Assembly: GCA_015067305.1 (NCBI GenBank)
Contig: SVMT01000006.1
Span: 18,751 to 82,750, forward strand
Source of the DNA: Oscillospiraceae bacterium
GTDB lineage: Bacteria > Bacillota > Clostridia > Oscillospirales > UBA644
DNA: 64,000 nt
Direction: 5' to 3'
A program made the position numbers and the translations under genes. The notes under the pieces were generated by a model, which searched no databases, was not told where the DNA came from, and saw only the letters and a list, made by a program, of their open reading frames with translations. Every line of letters starts with the position of its first letter. Position 1 is the first letter of the stretch. Shown here piece by piece: positions 15,039-55,058 of the stretch.

Positions 15039-15051
15039 TATTAGATTTTTT

Positions 15052-15264
15052 GCGGGAGAAGAAACCTTATTCCTAAAAGGTTCTTCTCCCGCACCCCTAT
15101 TTCCAAAACTCGTTGGGGCTAATTGATTGCAGGCATTATTTGCGTTAGCTTTATTTTTTATACTTAGTAAAATGTGCGAATGCACGGCAAAAGTTTATTG
15201 GAAAGGGTTCGGGGGAAACCTGTTTCACACGTGCAAGCAAGTGCACAAAAATGGTTTCCCCGCG
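15052..15264 (+). repeat. Structured intergenic module, copy A
   Basis: HP1 at 15052-15092. 5' arm ACCCCTATTTCCAAAA at 15093-15108. GCGTTAGCT at 15142-15150. Hairpin GTGCgaatGCAC at 15174-15185. 3' arm AAAGTTTATTGGAAAGGGTT at 15190-15209. HP2 GGGGAAACC...GGTTTCCCC at 15210-15264, then TTTTTA. Confidence 0.7.
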
Positions 15265-18195: not shown

Positions 18196-19641
18196 ATGAA
18201 ACGCATTATTGCAACTATTTTATTGGCAGTGATGGTTCTTGTTACTTCATGTGGCGCAGAACCCCCTGTACTTATGGACTTCCTCGGTCCCCAGACTGAC
18301 GGAAATGACTTCGGTGGTGTTACCATCAGGATTAACTCTGACGATAACTCAGAGGCAGAAGATGACAGCGGTTCCAAAAAAGGTTTTATCGGTACGGTTT
18401 TGAGATATGACCTTGAAACAACACTCGGTGATGCTATCATGCAGAGAACGGAAGCTGTTAAAAAAGCTTTGAATGTCAATATTGAATATGAATGGGAAGT
18501 GGACAGAGAAACAGCGAGAATGAAGCTTATGTCAGGTTCCTGGGATGCTGATATCACAAGCTATACAGGTTTCGGCGGTATGCAGGACTTTGCAGCTGCG
18601 GGAATGCTTCATCCCATTGCTGATTTTGATATTATCGACCTCAATGAAACATGGAAATACGGCGGCCCCAACGTACTTGAAGGCGGTATGGTGAACTCTG
18701 TTCCTTACTCTGTTCAGCCTGTTTCCTGGCCCGGTTGGGAACCCATGGAATGTTACGCCCTTTTCTATAACAGAGATATCGGTTCTATGAACGGTATTAC
18801 AGATCCTCAGGAATTCTATGAAAATCAGACTTGGGTATGGGATACATTTGAATCCGAATATCTTGCAAAGGTAAATCTTACCAGCGGTTCTGAAAAAATT
18901 CCCTGTCTTGCTACAGGTATTGACCCTCTTTACTACTGTCTTGCATATTCCAACAATGTTCAGTATGTAGAAATGGGTGCTGACGGTGCTTTTAAGATAA
19001 ATGCCGCACCCAATGAACTTATTGAAGCCCTTTCAGAAGGCAGAGAATGGGTTACCATGTATGGCGACAACATTGATCTTTCCGAAGGTTATTGGAGCCA
19101 TGACAACTACGACGACGGTTACGGTTACATGACGCTTGCTTCTCCCGGTACCATCGTTACAGGTTCTCTTGCGTACGAAGTTGACTTCTTCTCCGGCATT
19201 ATGCCCTTCCCCTGCGGTCCTTCCGTTGAATACGGCAGATGGGGTCAGGCTATTCAGAGAATTGAAGGTTTCGGTATTCCCATTTCTTCCAAGGAACCCG
19301 AAGTTGCGGCTCATGTTATTTCCGAACTCTTTGAACCCTTTGATGAATACATCGGAACTCTCGAAGAATACTACAGCTCCATGGCTTTTGAAGAAGGTAC
19401 ATACGACACAGAGATCTACACATCTCTTGATGACTACTCCAAATATGACTACACATTTGCAGGCGGTTCCGACCTTATGAGAGGTGTTAACAACAACCTC
19501 GCAAGTGTTCTCCGTTCCTCCAAGGGTGTTGCTGAAGCTATTCAGTCATATTCAGGGCAGATCACCGTAATTGCTGAAAAATATATTCTCCCCAACTACG
19601 ACTATATGTACAACAATTATTATGCAAATCTTGAAAACTAA
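18196..19641 (+). CDS. Lipoprotein, extracellular solute-binding-protein-like (paralog 1)
   Basis: Signal peptide with lipobox LVTSC. 481 aa with an SBP-like layout. It has its own consensus promoter and terminator. By eye, roughly half of the positions are identical to the next gene. Confidence 0.65.
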   Translation: MKRIIATILLAVMVLVTSCGAEPPVLMDFLGPQTDGNDFGGVTIRINSDDNSEAEDDSGSKKGFIGTVLRYDLETTLGDAIMQRTEAVKKALNVNIEYEWEVDRETARMKLMSGSWDADITSYTGFGGMQDFAAAGMLHPIADFDIIDLNETWKYGGPNVLEGGMVNSVPYSVQPVSWPGWEPMECYALFYNRDIGSMNGITDPQEFYENQTWVWDTFESEYLAKVNLTSGSEKIPCLATGIDPLYYCLAYSNNVQYVEMGADGAFKINAAPNELIEALSEGREWVTMYGDNIDLSEGYWSHDNYDDGYGYMTLASPGTIVTGSLAYEVDFFSGIMPFPCGPSVEYGRWGQAIQRIEGFGIPISSKEPEVAAHVISELFEPFDEYIGTLEEYYSSMAFEEGTYDTEIYTSLDDYSKYDYTFAGGSDLMRGVNNNLASVLRSSKGVAEAIQSYSGQITVIAEKYILPNYDYMYNNYYANLEN

Positions 19642-19871: not shown

Positions 19872-21293
19872 ATGAAGAAAGTTTTAGCTTTTTTACTTTT
19901 GGCTGTAATGTTAGTTTCAACTTCATGTGCGGCTGAACCTATGACCCTGCTCCCGTTCATTAACGATTCGGATTCAAGCGGAGTGAACTACGGTGGTGTT
20001 GAGATCATCATCAATTCAAGTGATAACGCAATGAATGATGACGAGACATATTGGGCTCAGATTCTCAAATACGATACCAATACAAATTACGGCGACGCTA
20101 TTCTTGCGAGAGTTGCCGATGTTGAGAAAAAACTCGGTGTTAAGATCGGTTATGACACGGAAGCAGACGGAGAGGATATTCTTCCTCTGCAAATCATGGC
20201 AGGTTCTTATGTAGGTGACATCGTTAATTATACAGCTTTCGGTGCTATGGAAAATTTTGCATCTGCAAATCTCCTTTTCCCCATGACCAATTTTGATCAT
20301 ATAGATCTTGCTGAGACATGGAAATACGGTAATGCAAACGTTCTCGAAGGTGCAATGGTCAAATCTGTTCCTTATGCTGTTCAGCCCGTTCAGTGGCCTA
20401 ACTGGGAACCTTCAGGTATTTCTTCCATGATTTACAATATGGATATGATTTCAGAATTATCTCTTACGGATCCCCACGAATTTTGGGAAAATGAGAATTG
20501 GTATTGGGATACATTTGAAGATACATATCTTAATGCTACAACGGGACTTGCTGAAGATGAATGGATGCTTTCCGCTTCCGAATACATTTTCTGGTACGGT
20601 CTTATGTATTCCAATGATGTGCAGTTCGTTTCTGCAAATGCAGATGGTGAATACGTTGTAAATTCCATGCCGCAGTCTATTATAGAAGCTGTTCAGGAAG
20701 GTGTAGACTGGTATCAGAACCATAGAGATATTGTAAACCTTTTCAGTGAGTATTGGAGTCATGAAGACTATGATAACGGTCTTTCCGTATTTACGGTTAC
20801 AGGCGCAACTACAGCAGTATCTGCCAGTATAGATGTGACTTCGGGTCTTATGCCTTTCCCTTGCGGCCCTTCTGCAACATACGGTACATGGCGTCAAGCA
20901 TTTGACAGAATTGAAGGTTTTGGTATTCCCATAACTTCACCTGAACCTGATATTGCTGCCCATGTTATTTCTGAACTTTTTGAACCCCTTGATGAATATC
21001 TCGGTGTATCACTTGAAGAATACTATAAAGAAATGATGTTCAATACAGAACTCGACGCAGAGATCTATATGGAACTTATTAAAGACGTTAGATATGATTA
21101 TACATTCCATGGCGGTTCAGACTTGATGAGAAGTGTAAACAATAATTTCTCAGGGGCTATCAAGTCAGGTAAAGCTGCAAATGAAGCTGCAGAAACATTC
21201 TCAAATCAGATTTCAGTGATTATGACCACATATGCACTTCCCAATTATGAGTATATGTATAAGAACTACTATTCTTTGGAAAACGCAGATTGA
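19872..21293 (+). CDS. Lipoprotein, extracellular solute-binding-protein-like (paralog 2)
   Basis: Lipobox VSTSC. Shares blocks with paralog 1: ETWKYG..NVLEG.MV.SVPY.VQPV.WP.WEP, GLMPFPCGPS, RIEGFGIPI.S.EP..AAHVISELFEP, YDYTF.GGSDLMR.VNNN. Confidence 0.65.
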   Translation: MKKVLAFLLLAVMLVSTSCAAEPMTLLPFINDSDSSGVNYGGVEIIINSSDNAMNDDETYWAQILKYDTNTNYGDAILARVADVEKKLGVKIGYDTEADGEDILPLQIMAGSYVGDIVNYTAFGAMENFASANLLFPMTNFDHIDLAETWKYGNANVLEGAMVKSVPYAVQPVQWPNWEPSGISSMIYNMDMISELSLTDPHEFWENENWYWDTFEDTYLNATTGLAEDEWMLSASEYIFWYGLMYSNDVQFVSANADGEYVVNSMPQSIIEAVQEGVDWYQNHRDIVNLFSEYWSHEDYDNGLSVFTVTGATTAVSASIDVTSGLMPFPCGPSATYGTWRQAFDRIEGFGIPITSPEPDIAAHVISELFEPLDEYLGVSLEEYYKEMMFNTELDAEIYMELIKDVRYDYTFHGGSDLMRSVNNNFSGAIKSGKAANEAAETFSNQISVIMTTYALPNYEYMYKNYYSLENAD

Positions 21294-24460: not shown

Positions 24461-24490
24461 AAAAGCCCCGAGATTTATTTCGGGGCTTTT
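24461..24490 (+). terminator. Terminator after GH38
   Basis: Perfect 10-bp stem AAAAGCCCCG / CGGGGCTTTT. Confidence 0.65.
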
Positions 24491-24509: not shown

Positions 24510-26462
24510 ATGCGAAAAAGAAAAGATTCGTTTTTCGGTTTACATTTTGATTTCCATGCAGATAATGACACCCGTGGCTTGGGCTTTTGCAATGTGGATG
24601 TCATTGACAGAATGCTTTCCGAGGTCAAACCCGATTTCGTTCAGTGCGATACGAAAGGCCATGCGGGTTTTTCGAGCTACCCCACAAAAGTGGGTAATCC
24701 CGCACCTGAAATGAAAGGTGATTTGCTGAAAACATGGCGTGAACTGACTAAAAAACACGATGTTGCCCTTTATGCACATCATTCAGGTGTGTGGGATTCT
24801 GAAGCCGTTGCGAAAGATCCCGATTGGGCTGTTGTTAAAGAAAATGGCGAACAAAGTGAAAATATTACTTCTGTTTTCGGTCCATATGCTGATGAACTTC
24901 TGATTCCTCAGCTTATTGAAATGGCGAAAGACTACGGTCTCGACGGCGCTTGGGTAGACGGCGAATGTTGGGCTACGGAAGAGGATCACAGCTATTACGC
25001 GGTTGAAAAATATAAAGAACTTTACGGTAAGGAACCTCCTTGTAAGGGTGACTCAAACTACTCTGAATATCTTGAGTTCTGCCGTAACGGGTTCCTTGAA
25101 TATGTGGATCACTACATGAAAGAAGTCCACAAGGTAGCTCCCGATTTTCAGCTTATTTCCAACTGGCTTTATACCATGTATGTAGTGAAACGTCCTGAGA
25201 TCGACATGGATTCCATTTCGGGGGACTATGATGCCAACGATAGCGTTAATACTGCTCGTGTTGACGGAAGGGCGATCATGAGCCAGCAGAAACCTTGGGA
25301 TCTTATGGCTTGGGGCTTTGGAAGACACGGAGATTCATTCTTCAATAAAACATGGAAGCAACTTTGTCAGGAAGCAGCAGCTGTTATTATGCTTGGCGGC
25401 GGTTTCCAGGTATATAACCGACAGGTAGCCGATACGACTCAGGAGGGGGACTTCAATATTGCAGGTTCTATTCAGGAATTTATTGTTCCGGGACTCATTG
25501 AACTTGCAAAATTCTGCCGTGCCCGTGAAGATATCTGCTTCAAGGCTGAACCTGTTCATCAGATCGGTATTGTTTATTCCGAAAAAGGGCATAATTCCGG
25601 TATTGACGAACTGTTCTCCCTCGGCGGAAAACATCATGGCGGTGTCAGAGGTACTACTTTGGCAATGGGGGATTGCGGTTTCTCTTCGGAAATTTTGATG
25701 ACTCATCATGTTCTTGACCGTGATATTTCAGAGTTCGGACTTATAATAGTTCCGGAACTTTCTGATATTGAACCTGAACTGAAAGAAAAATTGCTCGATT
25801 ATGCGAAAAATGGCGGAAAACTTGCTGTTATGGGTGCAAATTCCGCAAAGATATTCGAAACTGAACTTGGTGTGAAGATCACGAAGACGGTTGAAGATAC
25901 CATGATAGATATCAATTACGACGGTTTCAGAACTTCTGTTAAAACAGCTTTCGCTTGTGTTGAGCCGAATGTCGGAACAGAAGTTATCGGTGAAGTCTTT
26001 AAAACTGCTCATCATGAAAGCAAAAACGGGACTGCTCCCATTGCTACCGTTTGTAATTACGGAGACGGTCTTATCTGCGGCGTTTATTTGAATGTCGGAA
26101 GCTACCGTGAGTGGAGATCTTCCTCATTCAGAGGCTTCCTGAAAAATGTTGTCCGTAAGATATACACACCGTCAGTTCGCATTGTATCCAATTCCAATGT
26201 TGATGTCGCATTGATGAAAAAGAACGGTGCGCTTTGCGTAAACCTGATGAATCTCAACGGAGAACATGCTGACAGAAATGTTTGCGGTTTTGATGATATC
26301 CCTGCTCTGTACGATATTGAGATCGAGCTTGATGTTGCTGAAAAGCCTACGGAAGTCAAGCTTGAACCCGAAGGAAAGAGCCTACCATTTACATGGGAGG
26401 ACGGCGTTCTGAAGACTTGCGTCGATAAGATCGAAATTCATTCAGTTGTGGTAATTAAATAG
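24510..26462 (+). CDS. Putative glycoside hydrolase, GHL6-like TIM barrel with a beta-galactosidase-trimerisation-like domain
   Basis: The N-terminus FGLHFDFHA...CDTKGHAGFSSYPTKVG resembles the hypothetical GH-like family 6. The mid region LIIVPELSDIEPELKEKLLDYAKNGGKLAVMG resembles a GATase1-like trimerisation domain. No signal peptide. Confidence 0.5.
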   Translation: MRKRKDSFFGLHFDFHADNDTRGLGFCNVDVIDRMLSEVKPDFVQCDTKGHAGFSSYPTKVGNPAPEMKGDLLKTWRELTKKHDVALYAHHSGVWDSEAVAKDPDWAVVKENGEQSENITSVFGPYADELLIPQLIEMAKDYGLDGAWVDGECWATEEDHSYYAVEKYKELYGKEPPCKGDSNYSEYLEFCRNGFLEYVDHYMKEVHKVAPDFQLISNWLYTMYVVKRPEIDMDSISGDYDANDSVNTARVDGRAIMSQQKPWDLMAWGFGRHGDSFFNKTWKQLCQEAAAVIMLGGGFQVYNRQVADTTQEGDFNIAGSIQEFIVPGLIELAKFCRAREDICFKAEPVHQIGIVYSEKGHNSGIDELFSLGGKHHGGVRGTTLAMGDCGFSSEILMTHHVLDRDISEFGLIIVPELSDIEPELKEKLLDYAKNGGKLAVMGANSAKIFETELGVKITKTVEDTMIDINYDGFRTSVKTAFACVEPNVGTEVIGEVFKTAHHESKNGTAPIATVCNYGDGLICGVYLNVGSYREWRSSSFRGFLKNVVRKIYTPSVRIVSNSNVDVALMKKNGALCVNLMNLNGEHADRNVCGFDDIPALYDIEIELDVAEKPTEVKLEPEGKSLPFTWEDGVLKTCVDKIEIHSVVVIK

Positions 26463-26477
26463 TTTAGTGTTTGTTAT

Positions 26478-26619
26478 CCTCCAACAAAACCGATGTATGG
26501 ATATTCTTTGAAGCAGACTGAAAAAGATACGGATTTATTTGCGTAAGCTTTTTATGTTTTGTTTTTTGAGTATTCCGTTATGAAGCATAGAATGCTTCAT
26601 CCAAAAGTTTTTTTGGAGG
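26478..26619 (+). repeat. Structured intergenic module, copy D (core only)
   Basis: 5' arm CCTCCAACAAAAC at 26478-26490. GCGTAAGCT at 26541-26549. Hairpin GAAGCAtagaaTGCTTC at 26582-26598. 3' arm AAAAGTTTTTTTGGAGG at 26603-26619. Confidence 0.6.
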
Positions 26620-26689
26620 GCGCAATAACCTCTTTATATATTCCTGCATATTATGTATTGTTGAAATTTTATATGTAAGGATTGATTTT

Positions 26690-27736
26690 ATGAACGGACT
26701 GACAGTAAGGACATTTCTCAGCGCAAATTCCGCTGAGGGATTTTTTTCGTTTTTTGATGAATTTTTGAAAGGGAAGAATACCTATATCATCAAAGGTGGT
26801 CCCGGTACGGGGAAGAGTACTTTTATGAAAAAAGTCGCATCTTCGGCGGTTTCAAAGGGAGACGTCACTGAATATGTTTACTGTTCTTCCGACCCGGGCT
26901 CTCTTGATGGGGTTTATATACACGGGTCTGAGACTGTTTTTACCGATGGTACTTCACCTCATGTTATGGAGCCGAAATATCCCGGTGCAATGGGCGGTAT
27001 AATCAACGTGGGACAATTTTTGAACAGCGAAAAACTGTCGTTGTCTAAATCCGACATAATCTCTCTTAGCAGGAAGATATCAGACAGTTATTCCCGTGCG
27101 TACAGATACTTGAAAGCGGCTCAATGTGCGGTATCAGATTTGCGTGAAACTGCGCTCAGATACCTTGATAAAGATGAGATGATGCAGTATTTCAAGACTG
27201 TTTCTGAAAAAAGATTTGCCTATAAAAAGGGTGAAAAAGGGAAGATTTTCCCTCGTTTTCTTTCGGGTATAACTCCAAAGGGCTTTATGACTTTTAAAGA
27301 TACCGTTTATACTCTTTGTTCCGAGGTCTTTGTTGTCCGTGATAAATACGGTATCGGTGGCAAAGCATTTGAATTTCTTAAAAATGCGGCAATATCTCAC
27401 GGTTTTGATGTCTATGAATTTCGCTCTCCTCTTGAACCGTGTCGCATAGTTCATATAGCGATCCCCGAATTGGATATTGCGTTTGTTACTTCTGATAAAT
27501 TCACTCAGTTTGAACCCCAGAACGCAAAAACGGTAAATCTTATGAGGTTTGTTTCCGACGACATTGATCTTGAGGGGAAAACATGCGTTTCCGCTTCAAA
27601 AATCATGAAGATCTGTATGAATGAGACATTTGAGTCTTTGCGTTCCGCAAAAGCTCTCCATGACGACCTTGAAGATATTTACATTGCTGCAATGGACTTT
27701 GCTGGTCTTGATAAGCTGATCGAAAAGTATATTTAG
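26690..27736 (+). CDS. P-loop NTPase of unknown function
   Basis: GGPGTGKST Walker A, 348 aa, no other recognised domain. It resembles conserved Firmicute hypothetical ATPases. Confidence 0.55.
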   Translation: MNGLTVRTFLSANSAEGFFSFFDEFLKGKNTYIIKGGPGTGKSTFMKKVASSAVSKGDVTEYVYCSSDPGSLDGVYIHGSETVFTDGTSPHVMEPKYPGAMGGIINVGQFLNSEKLSLSKSDIISLSRKISDSYSRAYRYLKAAQCAVSDLRETALRYLDKDEMMQYFKTVSEKRFAYKKGEKGKIFPRFLSGITPKGFMTFKDTVYTLCSEVFVVRDKYGIGGKAFEFLKNAAISHGFDVYEFRSPLEPCRIVHIAIPELDIAFVTSDKFTQFEPQNAKTVNLMRFVSDDIDLEGKTCVSASKIMKICMNETFESLRSAKALHDDLEDIYIAAMDFAGLDKLIEKYI

Positions 27737-27791
27737 TTTTTATGAAAATAGTAGTATATTAAGATATCGGTTTCTTTTTTTGATGAGGAAA

Positions 27792-27829
27792 GGGGAAACC
27801 TTTTTCTGCGAAAAGAAAAAGGTTTCCCC
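27792..27829. repeat. Solo hairpin of the GGGGAAACC/GGTTTCCCC type
   Basis: GGGGAAACCTTTTTCT-gcgaaa-AGAAAAAGGTTTCCCC between convergent genes. It is preceded by TTTTTTTGatGAGGAAAG, which resembles the module's 3' arm. Confidence 0.6.
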
Positions 27830-27850
27830 ATAAAATAATATTCATGATAT

Positions 27851-34276: not shown

Positions 34277-37200
34277 ATGAACTCAAAACACACACCCAAG
34301 TTCAAGGCGCTCCTCGCCCTGTTCTTGAGTATCAGTATGCTGTTCAGCATGGTCGTCACATCCTTTGCGGCATTGCCTCAGGATGTTGTCGATGATGATG
34401 TGATCAGATACGTTTCTATCGGTGACTCCGTTACTAATGGTTACGGCTTGGATGAATACTATTTTTACGACGCTAATGGTAAGCGAATAAATTCTACAGG
34501 TTTTCGTAGATATGTTCCTACCTCTTATCCTTATCGTATTAGTGAGATTTTAAGCGAAGCTTTAGGTATGCCTGTTGAACTTGATCCTATGGCTATTGCC
34601 GGAATGCGCTTCAATGATCTTCGTCTCATACTTGATGAGTCTTTTGGCGGCGATACATATATGGGTGATGAAAATGGCGACGGTATAAGAGAAACGGTTT
34701 GGCGTTATAATAGCGCTGTTGACTGTTGGCTTGATATTTATCTTTCAAACCCGGAAGATGATAAAATAGATCCAAATGGTACTGCTGCTAAATATATAAA
34801 AGATTATAACTATACTAAAGGTTCGGACTTGGATCCTGCTTCAAGATGGGAAATCCTTAATAATGAATTTACATTGTCAATTGAAAAAGCAGATTTTATC
34901 AGTATTGATCTCGGATCTAATGATTTTGGTACTTATCTTACAGACCGATTGATGGATTATGTACAGGGTGAAGCTTTTGATGTTTCTAAGGCAGATTATC
35001 AGCGTTTTGAAATTTTCTTCGATGAGGTTTCTGTTAAGTCTTTGGAAAACATGGTCCTTACCATGATTCAAAATGCAGGTTATGAAGAACCATTGAAGTC
35101 TGTTGTTGGAGACCTTGTTGAAACTCTTCTTTATGGCCTTGTATCTTTCTGTGGAAACTTTGATGCTTGTATGGAGTTGCTCTTTGATATCAACCCTGAC
35201 GCACAGGTGATGATTATTGATGCATACAACATGATGTCCAGTGTTAAAATTGACGGTACTGCAGTTTTTGGTGAAGGCATAAATGTCAGTGATATAATGA
35301 ATATATTTATTGATATGGCAAATCTCTACACAAGAGAGCTTTCCCCTTATGCAAGCAAAGTTCTTCATGTAGATATCGGTGCTGATTCTTATCCAGATCT
35401 TGTAATGGATTACTTTAATGATTTTTCCGGTTGGATGAATCTTGAAGATGACGAAGTAACAGAAGCAAGAACAATAATGAAGTTGTTGCTTGAAGAATTC
35501 CTTGGTGATGAATGGTCTGCAGTTGAAGAGCAGATTATTACTATTGACAACATGGAAGATGATATTTCCGGCACTATTTCACTTAATATCATCAGCGCAA
35601 TTCTTGAAAACGCTCAGACCTCTGTTGAGGGCGTTAACCTTGTTAAAAAAGCAGTTGACGGTGTTGCACAGGCAGAATCTCTTATTGGTAACATCACTTC
35701 TACATACGTAGATACTGCATTTCTTGAAGGATATCTCCCCGATATTGTTGCCAAATATGACGGAACATCTTTAGAATCAATTATAAGATCAAACATCAGC
35801 AGTACAGTTGAAGACCTTTTGAAGGATGAATCTTTAGCGTCCATGCTTCCCCAAGAGGTTACTTCTTCAGTAATTTCTGATATGGTATATGATGTAGCTT
35901 TAGCTTACGGAAAATCTACATCCAACGAAGCTAAAAATGCGGTTATAAAAGCGGCGGTTATTGACATTTTGGAACTCGCACAGAGTTGCGATGAAGCTTA
36001 TGCTAATTTCATCTACAATATAGTTTCGGAATATAATGATGAAGCAAATACAACAGATAAAGAAAAAATGGTTGCCGCTATCACAACATATCTTAGCGCT
36101 GACACATCTATTGAAAAACCCGAAGCTATGGCTGAACTTGCATATACAGTATACTGTATTTACGATGCCGTTGTAGTTAAAGGTACTTTAGCTGACGCAA
36201 ATGATGTTATTGCCGTATTGACAGCGCTGTACGGTGATCGTCTGTTGCCTGAACAGATAAACGCAATAGGTGCTTGCTATTCGGGAAATTATACTGATGA
36301 GGAGCTTGTGACTGCTGTTTCCACATTGATGGCTTTGGGCGGATACGCTGACAGCATTGATATGTATAAATTGTATCATCAGTTTCCCTATACATTATCT
36401 GAAATAGCACAGAGCAATACTATTTATCTTGATTCATTCTTGCCGTATTTGGCTGGAAAGGCTTTGGATTTTGACGGTATTGCTGCAAGATTTTTCAGCG
36501 ATGATGATCCCTTGATTCTTACTGAACCTGACAGAGAAAAATATGAATCTGACGAAGCGTATAATGAAGCTTTTGAAATGTTCAAGCATGACTCCACACT
36601 TCTTACAGTTTATATCAGATTCCTCTCCCTCACAGGTTTGTTTGTTCACCCCAATTCTACAGGACATGCAACTTTTACGGAAGTAATATCAGAATATCTT
36701 GATAAGTTCGTTCCCAATGTGGCTGCAGGTGACGATGTTTACGAGCTCAGAACCGATATCGAATATAAAGTTCTTGCTATCGGCGACGAATATATTAAAA
36801 ATGTTGAAGATTGTTATGCTGAGAAAGTTGCAGAGGCTTTGGACAGCACTGTTAAATATCAATCATATCCCGGTTGGACAGTAGGGGAAACTCTTACTTT
36901 TGCTAAGAATAATCCTGAAAATATTTCCGGTTATGACTTGATCCTCCTTAATGTCGGTGCTTGGAATGTAGGCTATATTGCAAAATATCTCAACTCTAAC
37001 GGAACAGCTCCCATAGATCTTACAGATATTGATATCCTTGATGTTTCAAAAGATGCTGACGGTAAAAACAGTATCGGTGAAAGATTCGAAGACATGCTTA
37101 GCGGCGACGATATGATGCTCATGGCTAAGGCTATGATGTATGGTTACGCTGACTTCGCAAACAGCATTGAGCCTCTTGTTGAAACTCTTCTTGATACAGG

Positions 37201-40003
37201 TGCTACCGTTGTTATCGTTGGACTTGATAAACTTATGTCCGACAACTCTATCTTTGCACTTGGTGAAAACCTTACATTTAAACTTGATCTCCTTATTGAA
37301 AAACTTACAAGTGACTTTAACGGTCATATGGAAGTTATAGCAGATAAATACGAGAATTGCTACTTCACAGATATCTCCGGTGTAAATACAGGCGTTTCCA
37401 CTCCTGTTGTGATTACTCCCAACGGTGTTGGAGATATGGCTACAATGATGGGTGAAACACTCTTTGATGAATATGAACATGAAGAGATCGCAAAGAGAAT
37501 CATTTGTGATACCCTTGGTATTCACGTTCCTAATGCTGACGATGAAGGAACAACTGAAAAGATAGCTACTTTGGACGAATGTTGCTACGTTACATATAGC
37601 GGATGTGAATTGTGCGGAGTAGGTTCTTTCACAAGAGAAGTCGAACATGTTTGGGGTATGTACTTGATAGGTAGTGATGAGGCTACAGGTAAGGACATAC
37701 TTGAGGCAAAATGGGCAGACGACTTTACTTCTGCAACACCTATTTTGCGTTGCCCCGCTTGTGATGTGGAAACTCTTGCTGAATACTATACATCTGAAAA
37801 CATTACCATTAAAAAATATGAATCTTGTGAAGAAGACGGATATTGGAACTATACTGTTACATTTGACATTGGCGGAGAAGAATATGTGAATGTTTACAGT
37901 CGTGAAGTTGGTCCTACGGGTCACAAGTACGTCGAACCCACTTGGGAATGGACTAAGAATGAAGATGGCGTTTACGTAAATGCTGAAGCTACATTCGTTT
38001 GCGCTAACGACGAAGAACATGTTGAAAAAGTTTCCACAGAAGAATTCTCTGTTAAGGTAGTTACAGAACCCACTTGTACAGGTGAAGGTGAAAACGAATA
38101 TACCGCTACAGTTGAATTTAACGATAAAGAATATTCTAATACTAACCCCGAATATGTTGTTGTAGACAAGATCGCTCACGCTTACGACAAACCTGTTTGG
38201 GCTTGGTCTGAAGATCTTTCCGAAGCTACAGCTTCCTTCGAATGCATTTCTTGCGACGATGTTCAGGTTGTAGAAGCTGAGATCGAATCCGAAACAACTA
38301 AGTCTACTTGTCTTGAACACGGCGAAACAGTTTATACTGCAACTGTAGTATTCGGTGACGACAAGAAAGAATTTACAGATTCTATAACAGTAGAGCTTGA
38401 ACTCGGCGATCACGATTATGTTGATGATATCTGCTCCGTTTGCGGTGAAAAAGACCCCGATGCTCGTCCCGACGAAACAGGCGACTGCGTATATGTAACA
38501 GAAGAAGAACTTGACGCTGACGGTGTTTACACAATGACTCTCGGTGGTGAAGAGGTTGGCGAATTTGAATTCATTGCGGTTGACGGCGGTTGGACGATTT
38601 CCGATGACGGTGAATATCTTGCAATCGAAAACGGCAAACTTGTTTACAGTGAAAATGCGTTTGTTTGGACATTTGAAGATGATATGTTCAGCGCAAGCGA
38701 AACTGTAGTTGAAGAAATCAAAAAAGGCTTCTGGGGCGGTCTCTTTGGCGGTTCCGACAGCACAGAAATCGTAGAAACTACAACAACATACTACCTCGCA
38801 GTTGTTGAAGACGAACTCACAGCAGGCGAGATCGGTGATGCGGCAGAATTCTCTGTTAAACATCATGATGACAAACACAGCTACGACGAAGGCGTTGTAA
38901 CTAAACCCACTTGCACAGATAAGGGTTACACAACTTATACTTGCGAAAAGTGCGGCGAAGAATGTGTTTATAACGAAAGAGAAAAAATCGAACACAACTA
39001 CGTAGACGGCAAATGTGAAGACTGCGGTAAGCTTGAGGATGTTGAAGAACCCGAAGAACCTGAAGAAAACTGCATCTACATTGAAGAAGTTGAGCTTGAA
39101 GAAGACGGTTCTTATATTCTCTCTATCGGCGGCTATGAAGTAGGTAAATATACTGTTACGGCAGTTGATGACGGTTGGACTATCTTTGATGAAAAAGATG
39201 AAACATATCTTGCAGTTCTTAACGGTATCCTCGTTTATACAGATGAAGAGTTTGTTTGGGCTTATGATGAAGAAGAATGCAAGTTCTTCTATGAAGATGT
39301 TAAGGTTGTAACTACAACAAACAACTTCTGGGGCGGACTCTTCGGAGGTTCCACATCAACAGAGACTATCGTTAATGTTTACTACATCGTTCCCGAAGAA
39401 GATAAACTCGTAGTTTCTGAAGATGATGAACTTGCAGAAGTAACCTTTGAGGTCATTGTTGTTGAAGAAGGTCACGACTATGTTGACGGTATTTGCGAAA
39501 ACTGTGGTAAGTGCGAAGATGATACCTGCGTACACTTCGATGCTGTAGAGCTTGAAGAAAACGGCGAATACGTACTTATTATCGGTGATGAACATCTTGG
39601 CTTCCATACATTTGAAAATGTTGACGAAGACCTTTGGACTATCGTTAATGAAGACGGCGACTATGTAGCACTTGAAGATGGCGAGATCGTTTACACAAGC
39701 GAAGAATTCGTATGGACATACGATTCCGAAAAATCCGTATTCTCTGTTGAGATCGTAACTGTTGCGACAAGCGGCTTCTGGGGTGGACTCTTCGGTGGAA
39801 ATACTTCTACAAAGGTAGAAACTTATTATCTTGTTGCTGAAGACGGTAACCTTGCTGTTTCCTTGAAAGACAAGACTGCAACAGCTGAATTCCTTGTTGA
39901 AGTCGAAGGCGAACATGAATACGGCGACTTGGAAGATTACTACGGTTTGGGTCGTTCTTTCTGCGAAAATTGCGGTACAGTAAAATTTGAAATTGCTGAA
40001 TAA
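34277..40003 (+). CDS. Giant secreted acidic protein: split SGNH hydrolase, degenerate SGNH-like domain, Cys-rich modules and three FWGGLFGG repeats
   Basis: AGGAGGA as SD. Signal peptide ending SFA/A. GDS at 34421-34429, GSND at 34907-34930, HPNSTGH at 36647. One uninterrupted 1908-codon frame. Strong terminator at 40019-40049. Confidence 0.8.
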   Translation: MNSKHTPKFKALLALFLSISMLFSMVVTSFAALPQDVVDDDVIRYVSIGDSVTNGYGLDEYYFYDANGKRINSTGFRRYVPTSYPYRISEILSEALGMPVELDPMAIAGMRFNDLRLILDESFGGDTYMGDENGDGIRETVWRYNSAVDCWLDIYLSNPEDDKIDPNGTAAKYIKDYNYTKGSDLDPASRWEILNNEFTLSIEKADFISIDLGSNDFGTYLTDRLMDYVQGEAFDVSKADYQRFEIFFDEVSVKSLENMVLTMIQNAGYEEPLKSVVGDLVETLLYGLVSFCGNFDACMELLFDINPDAQVMIIDAYNMMSSVKIDGTAVFGEGINVSDIMNIFIDMANLYTRELSPYASKVLHVDIGADSYPDLVMDYFNDFSGWMNLEDDEVTEARTIMKLLLEEFLGDEWSAVEEQIITIDNMEDDISGTISLNIISAILENAQTSVEGVNLVKKAVDGVAQAESLIGNITSTYVDTAFLEGYLPDIVAKYDGTSLESIIRSNISSTVEDLLKDESLASMLPQEVTSSVISDMVYDVALAYGKSTSNEAKNAVIKAAVIDILELAQSCDEAYANFIYNIVSEYNDEANTTDKEKMVAAITTYLSADTSIEKPEAMAELAYTVYCIYDAVVVKGTLADANDVIAVLTALYGDRLLPEQINAIGACYSGNYTDEELVTAVSTLMALGGYADSIDMYKLYHQFPYTLSEIAQSNTIYLDSFLPYLAGKALDFDGIAARFFSDDDPLILTEPDREKYESDEAYNEAFEMFKHDSTLLTVYIRFLSLTGLFVHPNSTGHATFTEVISEYLDKFVPNVAAGDDVYELRTDIEYKVLAIGDEYIKNVEDCYAEKVAEALDSTVKYQSYPGWTVGETLTFAKNNPENISGYDLILLNVGAWNVGYIAKYLNSNGTAPIDLTDIDILDVSKDADGKNSIGERFEDMLSGDDMMLMAKAMMYGYADFANSIEPLVETLLDTGATVVIVGLDKLMSDNSIFALGENLTFKLDLLIEKLTSDFNGHMEVIADKYENCYFTDISGVNTGVSTPVVITPNGVGDMATMMGETLFDEYEHEEIAKRIICDTLGIHVPNADDEGTTEKIATLDECCYVTYSGCELCGVGSFTREVEHVWGMYLIGSDEATGKDILEAKWADDFTSATPILRCPACDVETLAEYYTSENITIKKYESCEEDGYWNYTVTFDIGGEEYVNVYSREVGPTGHKYVEPTWEWTKNEDGVYVNAEATFVCANDEEHVEKVSTEEFSVKVVTEPTCTGEGENEYTATVEFNDKEYSNTNPEYVVVDKIAHAYDKPVWAWSEDLSEATASFECISCDDVQVVEAEIESETTKSTCLEHGETVYTATVVFGDDKKEFTDSITVELELGDHDYVDDICSVCGEKDPDARPDETGDCVYVTEEELDADGVYTMTLGGEEVGEFEFIAVDGGWTISDDGEYLAIENGKLVYSENAFVWTFEDDMFSASETVVEEIKKGFWGGLFGGSDSTEIVETTTTYYLAVVEDELTAGEIGDAAEFSVKHHDDKHSYDEGVVTKPTCTDKGYTTYTCEKCGEECVYNEREKIEHNYVDGKCEDCGKLEDVEEPEEPEENCIYIEEVELEEDGSYILSIGGYEVGKYTVTAVDDGWTIFDEKDETYLAVLNGILVYTDEEFVWAYDEEECKFFYEDVKVVTTTNNFWGGLFGGSTSTETIVNVYYIVPEEDKLVVSEDDELAEVTFEVIVVEEGHDYVDGICENCGKCEDDTCVHFDAVELEENGEYVLIIGDEHLGFHTFENVDEDLWTIVNEDGDYVALEDGEIVYTSEEFVWTYDSEKSVFSVEIVTVATSGFWGGLFGGNTSTKVETYYLVAEDGNLAVSLKDKTATAEFLVEVEGEHEYGDLEDYYGLGRSFCENCGTVKFEIAE
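38411..40003 (+). repeat. Three in-frame tandem coding repeats (~150-200 aa each) in the giant gene
   Basis: The units start at H-x-Y-V-D-x-x-C-x-x-CG (38411, 38993, 39473). Each contains FWGGLFGG (38729-38752, 39326-39349, 39776-39799). Confidence 0.85.
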
Positions 40004-46712: not shown

Positions 46713-46736
46713 TTTTTAAGTGAATATATTTTTTAT

Positions 46737-47079
46737 GGGGAACCGTTTTTCTTTTCGCGGAAAAAGAAAAACGGTTCCCCAAACCCCTCCAAAAAAGAAA
46801 ACCGATGCTGGAGGGTCCTGTTAAAATATTATTTTTATAAAAATATATTCTAAACGGATTCTTTTCGCGGAAAAAGAAAAAAGGTTCACCAAACCCTTCC
46901 AAAAAAGAAAACCGCTGATTGGGGCATCTTGGAAAAAATGTCCCAATAGCTGATGCATGGAAAAATGCATTTGCGATAGCTATTGGGGCTTTTAGTTTTG
47001 ATTTTGAGCTTTGCTCGGTAAAAGTTTTTTTGGATAGGGGTATGGGGAAAACCTATTTTTACAAAAAATGGTTTTCCCC
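46737..47079 (+). repeat. Structured intergenic module, copy B (expanded)
   Basis: HP1 is a perfect 19-bp stem at 46737-46780. A direct duplication links 46751-46813 and 46861-46923. Inner hairpin CCCAATAGCT / AGCTATTGGG at 46942-46987. Hairpin GAGCtttGCTC at 47006-47016. 3' arm at 47021-47040. HP2 at 47044-47079. Confidence 0.7.
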
Positions 47080-47101
47080 ATATAAAACTTAAATATTTCC
47101 C

Positions 47102-54782: not shown

Positions 54783-54809
54783 TTTATTATAATTTTTATA
54801 TTTTTTTAT

Positions 54810-55037
54810 GGGGGAAACCCTCTTTTCGCGTGAAAAGAGAGTTTCCCCCATACCCCTTTCCGAGAAAAGCGATACAGGGGCTTTATCAAAAAAGACTAAA
54901 AGCTAACGCAAATTCAGATCATGTATTATTGGCGTTAGCTATTGATCCTTTACCGTTTATTTTTTGTACGAAGTACAGTTAAAGTTTTTTTGGAAAGGGT
55001 ACGGGAAAACCAATTTTTACAAAAAATGGTTTTCCCG
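54810..55037 (+). repeat. Structured intergenic module, copy C (cleanest)
   Basis: HP1 at 54810-54849. 5' arm at 54851-54870. AGCTAACGC / GCGTTAGCT at 54901-54940. GTACgaaGTAC at 54966-54976. 3' arm at 54981-55001. HP2 at 55002-55037. Confidence 0.7.
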
Positions 55038-55058
55038 TAATTTTAATATTAAATTACA

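Follow-up and report, generated by a model that had tools for sequence, protein, structure and literature searches.

A worn, hairpin-less copy of a palindromic intergenic repeat family in uncultured Clostridia

Positions 26478..26619 (+ strand, 142 bases from 5′ arm to 3′ arm) of the window, by which we mean the whole 64-kb stretch of DNA analysed, hold a real but worn copy of a palindromic intergenic repeat family of uncultured gut or rumen Clostridia (Eubacteriales MAGs). This copy, designated c26k, lies in the 227-nt spacer between a GHL6-like gene (24510-26462, Pfam GHL6, stop codon TAG at 26460-26462) and a P-loop/STAND-like ATPase gene whose start at 26690 was read from the sequence; both genes are on the + strand. 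The family is probably a mosaic interspersed repeat comparable to BOX, REP/BIME and MITE elements, built from terminator-like palindromes and an inverted-repeat-bounded core, with c26k as a partly decayed copy that lacks the hairpins.

The sequence-only reading had placed a core-only repeat copy in the spacer between the + strand GHL6-like and ATPase genes, and this was confirmed both by reading and by models built without c26k. An nhmmer profile from which c26k was left out recovered 26480-26620 (E = 1e-6), and the covariance model CM R1, seeded from four other copies only, recovered 26474-26626 at full length (E = 8e-7); fold z-scores further support the assignment. c26k carries the ordered blocks of the core family, namely the 5′ arm, AAAACCGATG, the TGG box, the GCGTWAGCT box, the P3 hairpin and a AAAGTTTTTTTGG-type 3′ arm, and the blocks AAAACCGATG and TTATTTGCGTAAGCT, through which its flanks had been aligned to other copies, are present as described. 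It could still be argued that the resemblance arose by chance, or that c26k is an ordinary intrinsic terminator region unrelated to the other copies, since the region is AT-rich, T- and A-runs pair easily, and the AAAGTTTTTTTGGA pattern by itself, with two mismatches allowed, is no rarer than expected by chance. However, independent models converge on a full-length copy at E values of about 1e-6, and the block order is shared with the other copies. A scan of 26300-26800 found no intrinsic terminator inside c26k, where the P3 hairpin stands 6 nt from a T7 run and no hairpin leads directly into a U-tract, and the canonical A-tract/hairpin/T-tract terminators that also occur in this genome (e.g. 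24461-24490) look different. Chance resemblance is refuted by the model searches, and this explanation as a whole is scarcely credible.

The 5′ arm of c26k (P1 5′ strand, 26478..26490, +), CCTCCAACAAAAC, is a CCTCC variant, and the 3′ arm (P1 3′ strand, 26607..26619, +) is GTTTTTTTGGAGG; both were located by direct reading and by inverted-repeat search. The arms pair as had been proposed, being complementary at 12 of 13 positions with a single C/T mismatch, and in the inverted-repeat search the pairing reaches 22 nt, with 77% complementarity. The stretch AAAGTTTTTTTGGA within the 3′ arm is the same in three other copies. Between the arms, alignments identify a conserved internal block, the TGG box followed by ATTCTTTGAA (26496..26512, +), which in other copies could pair locally with the 5′ arm, as read from the sequences. 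The conserved box TTATTTGCGTAAGCT (26536..26549, +), supported by alignments and by a pattern count of eight matches against 0.65 expected, is the 3′ half of hairpin P2, whose 5′ partner is missing in c26k. Inverted-repeat search also identified the P3 hairpin (26580..26600, +), a perfect 9-bp stem, ATGAAGCAT-AGA-ATGCTTCAT, whose AAGCAT subtype recurs in L050, a contig of MAG JAZTZU01, and in ext1, a core just past the window end. RNAfold closes c26k with 7+5 of the arm pairs (-42.9 kcal/mol, z = -5.3). With half of P2 lost and the outer CCC/GGG pairs eroded to T-G, A/C and T-G, c26k is a partly decayed core-only copy. It contains a 17-codon ORF without counterpart in other copies, as read from the sequence. 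The 5′-arm segment AACAAAAC (26483-26490) also pairs perfectly with the internal GTTTTGTT (26556-26563), which matches the ext1 3′-arm variant GTTTTGTTGG; given this internal match, c26k may be a fusion of two partial cores.

Besides c26k, the window contains three further full cores, all in + orientation and each between type A and type B palindromes, plus a 5′ half-core (46784-46855). The canonical module c55k (54807..55039, +) comprises hairpin A (54807-54852), the core (54853-54999) and hairpin B (55000-55039), and the full module c15k (15051..15262, +) comprises hairpin A (15051-15093), the core (15094-15209) and hairpin B (15210-15262). The composite c47k (46734..47082, +) starts with hairpin A (46734-46783) and continues through the half-core, a degenerate hairpin (46856-46893) and a full core (46894-47040) to hairpin B (47041-47082). 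A partial unit consisting of a T-run, GAGGAAAG and a type A hairpin lies 3′ of the ATPase stop (27776..27833, +). Cores are about 115-150 nt long, with imperfect inverted repeats at their ends (CCCTTTCC-A-run ... T-run-GGAAAGGG; family end sequences of the form CCCTTTCCAAAAAAAC). Inside lie the TGG box, the P2 hairpin with GCGTTAGCT at its end, and the P3 hairpin, which is short and variable. A DtxR/IdeR-type operator was considered for the GCGTTAGCT box and rejected, the half-sites lying 10-25 nt apart (consensus from general knowledge). Both palindromes are long and terminator-like: type A reads GGGGAACC..CTTTTC-GCGG-GAAAAG..GGTTCCCC, and type B reads GGGAAAACCTATTTTT-ACA-AAAAATGGTTTTCCC and is near-identical across species, loop included. 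The flanking GGGGAAACC-type hairpins are indeed missing at c26k, the nearest being at 27790-27831 and 24461-24490.

Two more cores, ext1 and ext2, lie in tandem within 8 kb past the window end (L047 790-1260 of the extended window contig, minus strand), which with the four in the window makes six cores in about 82 kb. Pattern scans of genome and metagenome collections yielded five further true copies, three in the Eubacteriales MAG JAZTZU01, one in MAG JAZSMD01 and one in a metagenome contig, and the remaining matches were judged to be chance; the copies in the two other MAGs and in the metagenome contig sit at non-orthologous places. As a strict pattern gave just three matches in the whole JAZTZU01 assembly, the family is denser in the lineage of the window organism, which is uncultured and seen in many metagenomes. 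Of two scans of viral contigs, one returned chance matches alone and the other no match, so that neither gave a true copy, and blastn against plasmids and phages gave no match. Outside the conserved blocks, identity between copies is only about 50-60%, and therefore no recent burst of the repeat is indicated. Rfam had no match on the window at gathering score, and none on c26k, L014 or L007 at E up to 1 except spurious miRNA-hairpin matches; a full-text literature search with four signature sequences of the family found no paper containing them. The family thus appears to be undescribed, though it appears to be a repeat of an already familiar kind.

The core had been said to be separable from the terminator-like hairpins, and this is borne out by the build of the copies: some have no hairpin A or no hairpin B, c26k has neither, and ext1 and ext2 are joined arm to arm, so that a hairpin arises directly from the 3′ arm of one core and the 5′ arm of its neighbour, without an intervening type A or type B palindrome. 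Core and terminator-like hairpins are separable modules. The mosaic extends to the parts of the core, with only fragments of the 5′ arm in L004, no 5′ arm in L006 and L010, and P2 entirely absent from the L050 orthologue of c47k, whose layout is otherwise the same. In L023, three units of another core subtype stand in tandem and share hairpins. In L021, a lone P2-type hairpin is the terminator after the ATPase gene, and in the convergent spacer 3′ of the ATPase gene the hairpin varies by species, each having its own member of the repertoire. A separate element of about 220 nt, with ends that pair (GGGGGTGGCTCA...TGAGCCAGCCCC) and a terminator-like hairpin inside, was seen at L049 578-800 and L026 11064-11279 (also in L027-L029); two species carry it at non-orthologous places, with 79% identity. 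It is absent from the window and has no Rfam match at E ≤ 0.01, and in L049 it comes immediately after a partial repeat core, where hairpin B would otherwise stand.

The replacement of GGAAAGG/CCTTTCC by GGAGG/CCTCC on both sides of c26k had been put forward as the sign that pairing, rather than primary sequence, is under selection in the closing stem P1. The arms of c26k do match in this way, but the route to the match (two mirrored 2-nt deletions, or TT>CC with AA>GG) depends on the alignment. P1 was therefore tested in the nine copies having both arms, c26k included, using fixed windows anchored on the invariant CC/GG and 500 shuffles of the 3′ letters among copies. No significant covariation was found, since 80.7% of the cells were paired compared with 80.1% after shuffling, and 217 of the 500 shuffles equalled or exceeded the observed value, with power limited at nine copies. 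Cells changed on both sides numbered 3 against 1.9 expected (117/500 and 134/500 shuffles reach that number), and an independent script run on the CM alignment gave the same picture, whereas RNAalifold on a MAFFT alignment, in which the arms and P3 were misaligned, recovered P2 only. The claim of selection on P1 pairing is not supported by these values, and the outcome named beforehand as refuting it, arm changes that are independent and often unpaired, is the one seen. In the two columns that look compensated, U-A occurs in three to four copies and C-G in c26k only, and the columns are unpaired in five and three of the other eight copies. The CCTCC 5′ arm also occurs at 46787-46793, there without a distal partner, and in ext1 (L047), where it faces an unchanged GGAAAGGG with two C/A mismatches. 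Overall, the 3′ arm is near-invariant in sequence (AAAGTTTTTTTGGAAAGGG in most copies) and changes accumulate in the 5′ arm without compensation. REPINs, a class of mobile DNA hairpins, have been reported to show two-sided matching changes commonly (PMC3116915), and such changes therefore do not point to RNA specifically. The end sequences of c26k match each other, yet the family shows no pairing-driven co-evolution in P1, and the match is not good evidence for a selected RNA fold.

Maintained pairing is better evidenced by the P3 stems and hairpin A than by P1. Five different P3 stems are found, TGTAC/GTACA, GAGC/GCTC, GTGC/GCAC, GTGTG/CACAC and ATGAAGCAT/ATGCTTCAT, each perfectly complementary, although they could not be placed in one register for covariation counting. 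In hairpin A of the 47-kb module, an inserted A is matched by an inserted T and a G-C pair is exchanged for T-A between the window and JAZTZU01. Such variation with pairing kept, together with strong plus-strand folds (z = -5.3, -4.8 and -3.6 for three of four copies), would be expected of a cis-acting structured RNA in 3′ UTRs or operon spacers, acting as a stabiliser, processing signal or protein-binding element. P1 would then close a P2/P3 junction, the 5′ arm would switch between the TGG box and the 3′ arm, and c26k would be a functional minimal version. The two alternative partners of the 5′ arm show some matched changes that fit this scheme (CCACG/CGTGG in ext1, CCCTCCA/TGGAGGG at 46.79 kb, CCCCCAA/TTGGGGG in L007), as do conservation of orthologous blocks above the neutral level and the co-orientation of four of five tandem-spacer copies with their genes. 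Against these stand the lack of P1 covariation, the loss of all or half of P2 in c26k, ext1 and the L050 orthologue, and the loss of the 5′ arm in L006 and L010. Moreover, the minus strand folds with z-scores similar to those of the plus strand, and G-T and A-C mismatches are about equally frequent (13 vs 9), with no strand asymmetry. The element is not kept at the orthologous GHL6-ATPase or SpoU-DUF378 spacers, no promoter-like site was found upstream of c26k, and the neighbouring genes show no link to a gene class. We consider a structured RNA possible but doubtful.

The conservation above the neutral level comes from c47k and its orthologue in L050. In the neighbouring alpha-galactosidase gene, the window and JAZTZU01 agree at 56% of the four-fold degenerate sites, whereas identity reaches 89% in the block of hairpin A and 5′ arm and 80% in the block of second hairpin, 5′ arm and TGG box; the P2/P3 interior could not be aligned. 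This implies that purifying selection or concerted evolution among copies maintains some blocks, and a host function is possibly behind their conservation. Compatible with this conservation of hairpins and 5′ arm, and with the near-identity of the type B hairpin across species, would also be a hitherto unrecognised class of Firmicutes hairpin-borne element that is both mobile and functional. Its single-stranded DNA hairpins would be moved by a domesticated Y1/RAYT-like or other enzyme, or it would act as a 3′-UTR RNA module that controls mRNA fate, its 5′ arm pairing by turns with the TGG box and the 3′ arm, with c26k as the minimal active core either way. This combination is rather unlikely. 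As a separate observation, the AT-rich 27 nt from the alpha-galactosidase stop to hairpin A are 26/27 identical between the window (54783-54808) and L050 (7627-7652), where four-fold sites are 56% identical. Only 133 nt of the JAZTZU01 contig remain beyond the alpha-galactosidase gene (L050 7627-7759), so that it stops just past the orthologous hairpin A, and its sequence after that hairpin differs from the window core; this contig end inside the module suggests that the repeats break assemblies.

c26k is present in all same-species contigs (L001-3 and L020), with at most two substitutions and none in the arms. A selection test on c26k against L020, a relative by its 93% identical ATPase, had no power, L020 belonging to the same species with 98-99% identity in the flanking DNA. 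In the orthologous GHL6-ATPase spacers of L031, L021, L022 and L030 (ATPase identity to the window 78%, 79%, 70% and 68%, respectively), which are 24-130 nt long, the module is absent, and L023 and L026 have neither a GHL6 gene nor a module upstream of the ATPase gene. Spacer alignments and gene maps delimit the segment that is extra in the window species to approximately 26463..26623 (+, about 160 nt). The rest of the spacer (26624..26689, +) is homologous by alignment to the short spacers of the relatives and constitutes the ancestral 5′ leader of the ATPase gene, outside the repeat. By comparison of these sequences, c26k seems to have been gained recently in, or retained only by, the window species. 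In L031, whose spacer sequence is the most similar among the relatives, a further 30 bases (TTATTTTTATTGCGAGGCGCC) look like the 3′ arm with its flank, and the module may therefore have been gained earlier and then deleted in L031. Comparison of filled and empty spacers revealed no target-site duplication at the c26k borders, which are blurred by divergence. At the orthologous 15-kb site, where the window has c15k, L026 and L030 have a single terminator hairpin and L023 has the three tandem units described above; like MITEs, the family thus shows presence/absence differences at orthologous sites.

The same spacers bear on whether c26k is a gene-specific leader, attenuator- or riboswitch-like, of the downstream ATPase gene, as its position 70 nt upstream of the ATPase start, its strand and its strong structure might suggest. 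This is largely refuted by the orthologous spacers, in that c26k is absent upstream of the ATPase orthologues in L021, L022, L023, L026, L030 and L031, while the relatives share a different conserved leader sequestering the Shine-Dalgarno sequence, which the window keeps downstream of c26k. As the same module also occurs after unrelated genes and between convergent genes, and has no Rfam match, a leader role of c26k is very improbable. The conserved ATPase leader itself (window 26624-26689; L021 6905-6985; L022 9932-10000; L030 9928-10000; L023 9930-10000) is a long hairpin (e.g. AATCCCTTTTTACATATTATGATTACGGATAGTAATCTAATTTTGCAAAAAGGGATT) pairing the Shine-Dalgarno sequence, common to species with 67-79% identical proteins, and from its sequence it may be a translational control element.

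The orientation of neighbouring genes was compared at ten loci. Five of the ten lie between convergent genes and four or five in tandem spacers, with none between divergent genes. The co-orientation in tandem spacers (4/5) is a weak hint of an RNA-level role. The neighbours are mixed, including glycosidases, an ATPase, a methyltransferase, an NAD synthase and a sigma factor, and the palindromes of full modules often have no downstream U-tract. No transposase domain and no Y1/RAYT-like gene were found in the window or about 17 kb of its flanks (~80 kb), nor was an insertion sequence with matching ends found there. Some genes without Pfam matches were observed alongside. A 1908-aa ORF (window 34277-40003) has internal repeats, e.g. 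TTCTGGGGCGG...TTCGG units at 38720, 39317 and 39767. Two adjacent paralogous ORFs of 481 and 473 aa (window 18196-19641 and 19872-21293), whose DNA repeats are 76-78% identical, lie upstream of a GH38 mannosidase and are conserved in relatives. A 969-aa ORF without a Pfam domain, between a thioredoxin-like gene and rnfC (L048 2653-5562), varies between strain contigs of the window species, being present in this one and missing in L049.

Among known systems, BOX of Streptococcus pneumoniae (boxA-boxB(n)-boxC), together with RUP, resembles the c26k family in its Firmicutes host, its modular, mosaic build with optional and repeated internal modules, its paired inverted-repeat end modules, its intergenic location mostly downstream of genes, its structure when transcribed and its many diverged copies (PMC3049150); the terminal inverted repeats of BOX and RUP pair in the duplex (PMC3049150). 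Unlike them, the c26k family has no sequence similarity to BOX or RUP, its core usually lies between long terminator-like palindromes, its host is an uncultured Clostridia lineage, and no cognate insertion sequence or target duplication was found for it. REP/BIME/REPIN elements likewise are extragenic palindromes in composite mosaics and tandem clusters, with inverted pairs that form a long hairpin, common two-sided matching changes (in REPINs) and lineage-specific repertoires (PMC3116915, PMC2817692), and the eight GGGGAAACC-type hairpins in 64 kb, in tandem and mosaic arrangement, are palindromes of this kind. In contrast to theirs, the palindromes of the c26k family are 35-50 nt long and AT-rich inside, their feet read TAT/TAC/TGC-GGGG with no GTAG or CGTC tag, the unit is about 140-230 nt rather than 70-110 nt, and about 80 kb contain no RAYT/Y1 gene. 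SPRITE, a pneumococcal repeat resembling Rho-independent terminators, shows enrichment in convergent spacers (PMC3049150); hairpins of types A and B are similarly repeated long terminator-like stems at gene 3′ ends and between convergent genes, and some hairpins of relatives have canonical A-tract/T-tract flanks (L030), whereas full-module hairpins often lack a downstream U-tract and occur in combination with a separate core. Correia elements and other bacterial MITEs are also small, non-coding, bounded by inverted repeats, intergenic, multi-copy and variable between close lineages. The c26k family has arms of 13-22 nt in every copy having the 5′ part, as terminal inverted repeats of a MITE would be, and no conserved ORF; it differs in that no target-site duplication or matching insertion sequence was found and in that its copies are far more diverged.

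Taken together, a mobile repeat is supported by the dense, multi-copy, mosaic and lineage-specific occurrence of the family, its location at gene ends, the lack of P1 covariation, the similar folding of both strands and the lack of an Rfam family. It is weakened by the lack of a target-site duplication and of a nearby transposase, the divergence of the copies, the retention of c47k with 80-89% identical blocks, the tandem co-orientation and the 3′-arm-like stretch in L031. If the mobile-repeat reading holds, the family would spread and reshuffle as DNA, through non-autonomous transposition and/or recombination and slippage between copies, as modelled on proposals for BOX, REP/BIME/REPIN and MITE elements, and would insert mostly just downstream of genes. 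The "closing stem" would then simply be a pair of terminal inverted repeats, and the matched CCTCC/GGAGG ends of c26k would have been inherited from, or homogenised within, a CCTCC sub-lineage rather than produced by two selected RNA-level changes. In the window species, c26k would have entered the spacer directly after the GHL6 stop codon, upstream of the old ATPase leader, as the family proliferated in this lineage. Presumably c26k is transcribed together with its neighbours into a stable, rod-like structure, with secondary effects, if any, on expression.

The finding opens no long-standing question, and it carries a caution, in that an RNA fold should not be deduced from matched changes in the two arms of a single repeat copy. 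For the annotation of MAGs, it matters that such repeats appear to break assemblies, mimic terminators and mimic structured RNAs in motif screens. If our reading is right, the window shows an uncultured Clostridia lineage filling its gene-end spacers with modular palindromes and an inverted-repeat core, the parts of which would be swapped, multiplied or lost between close species.
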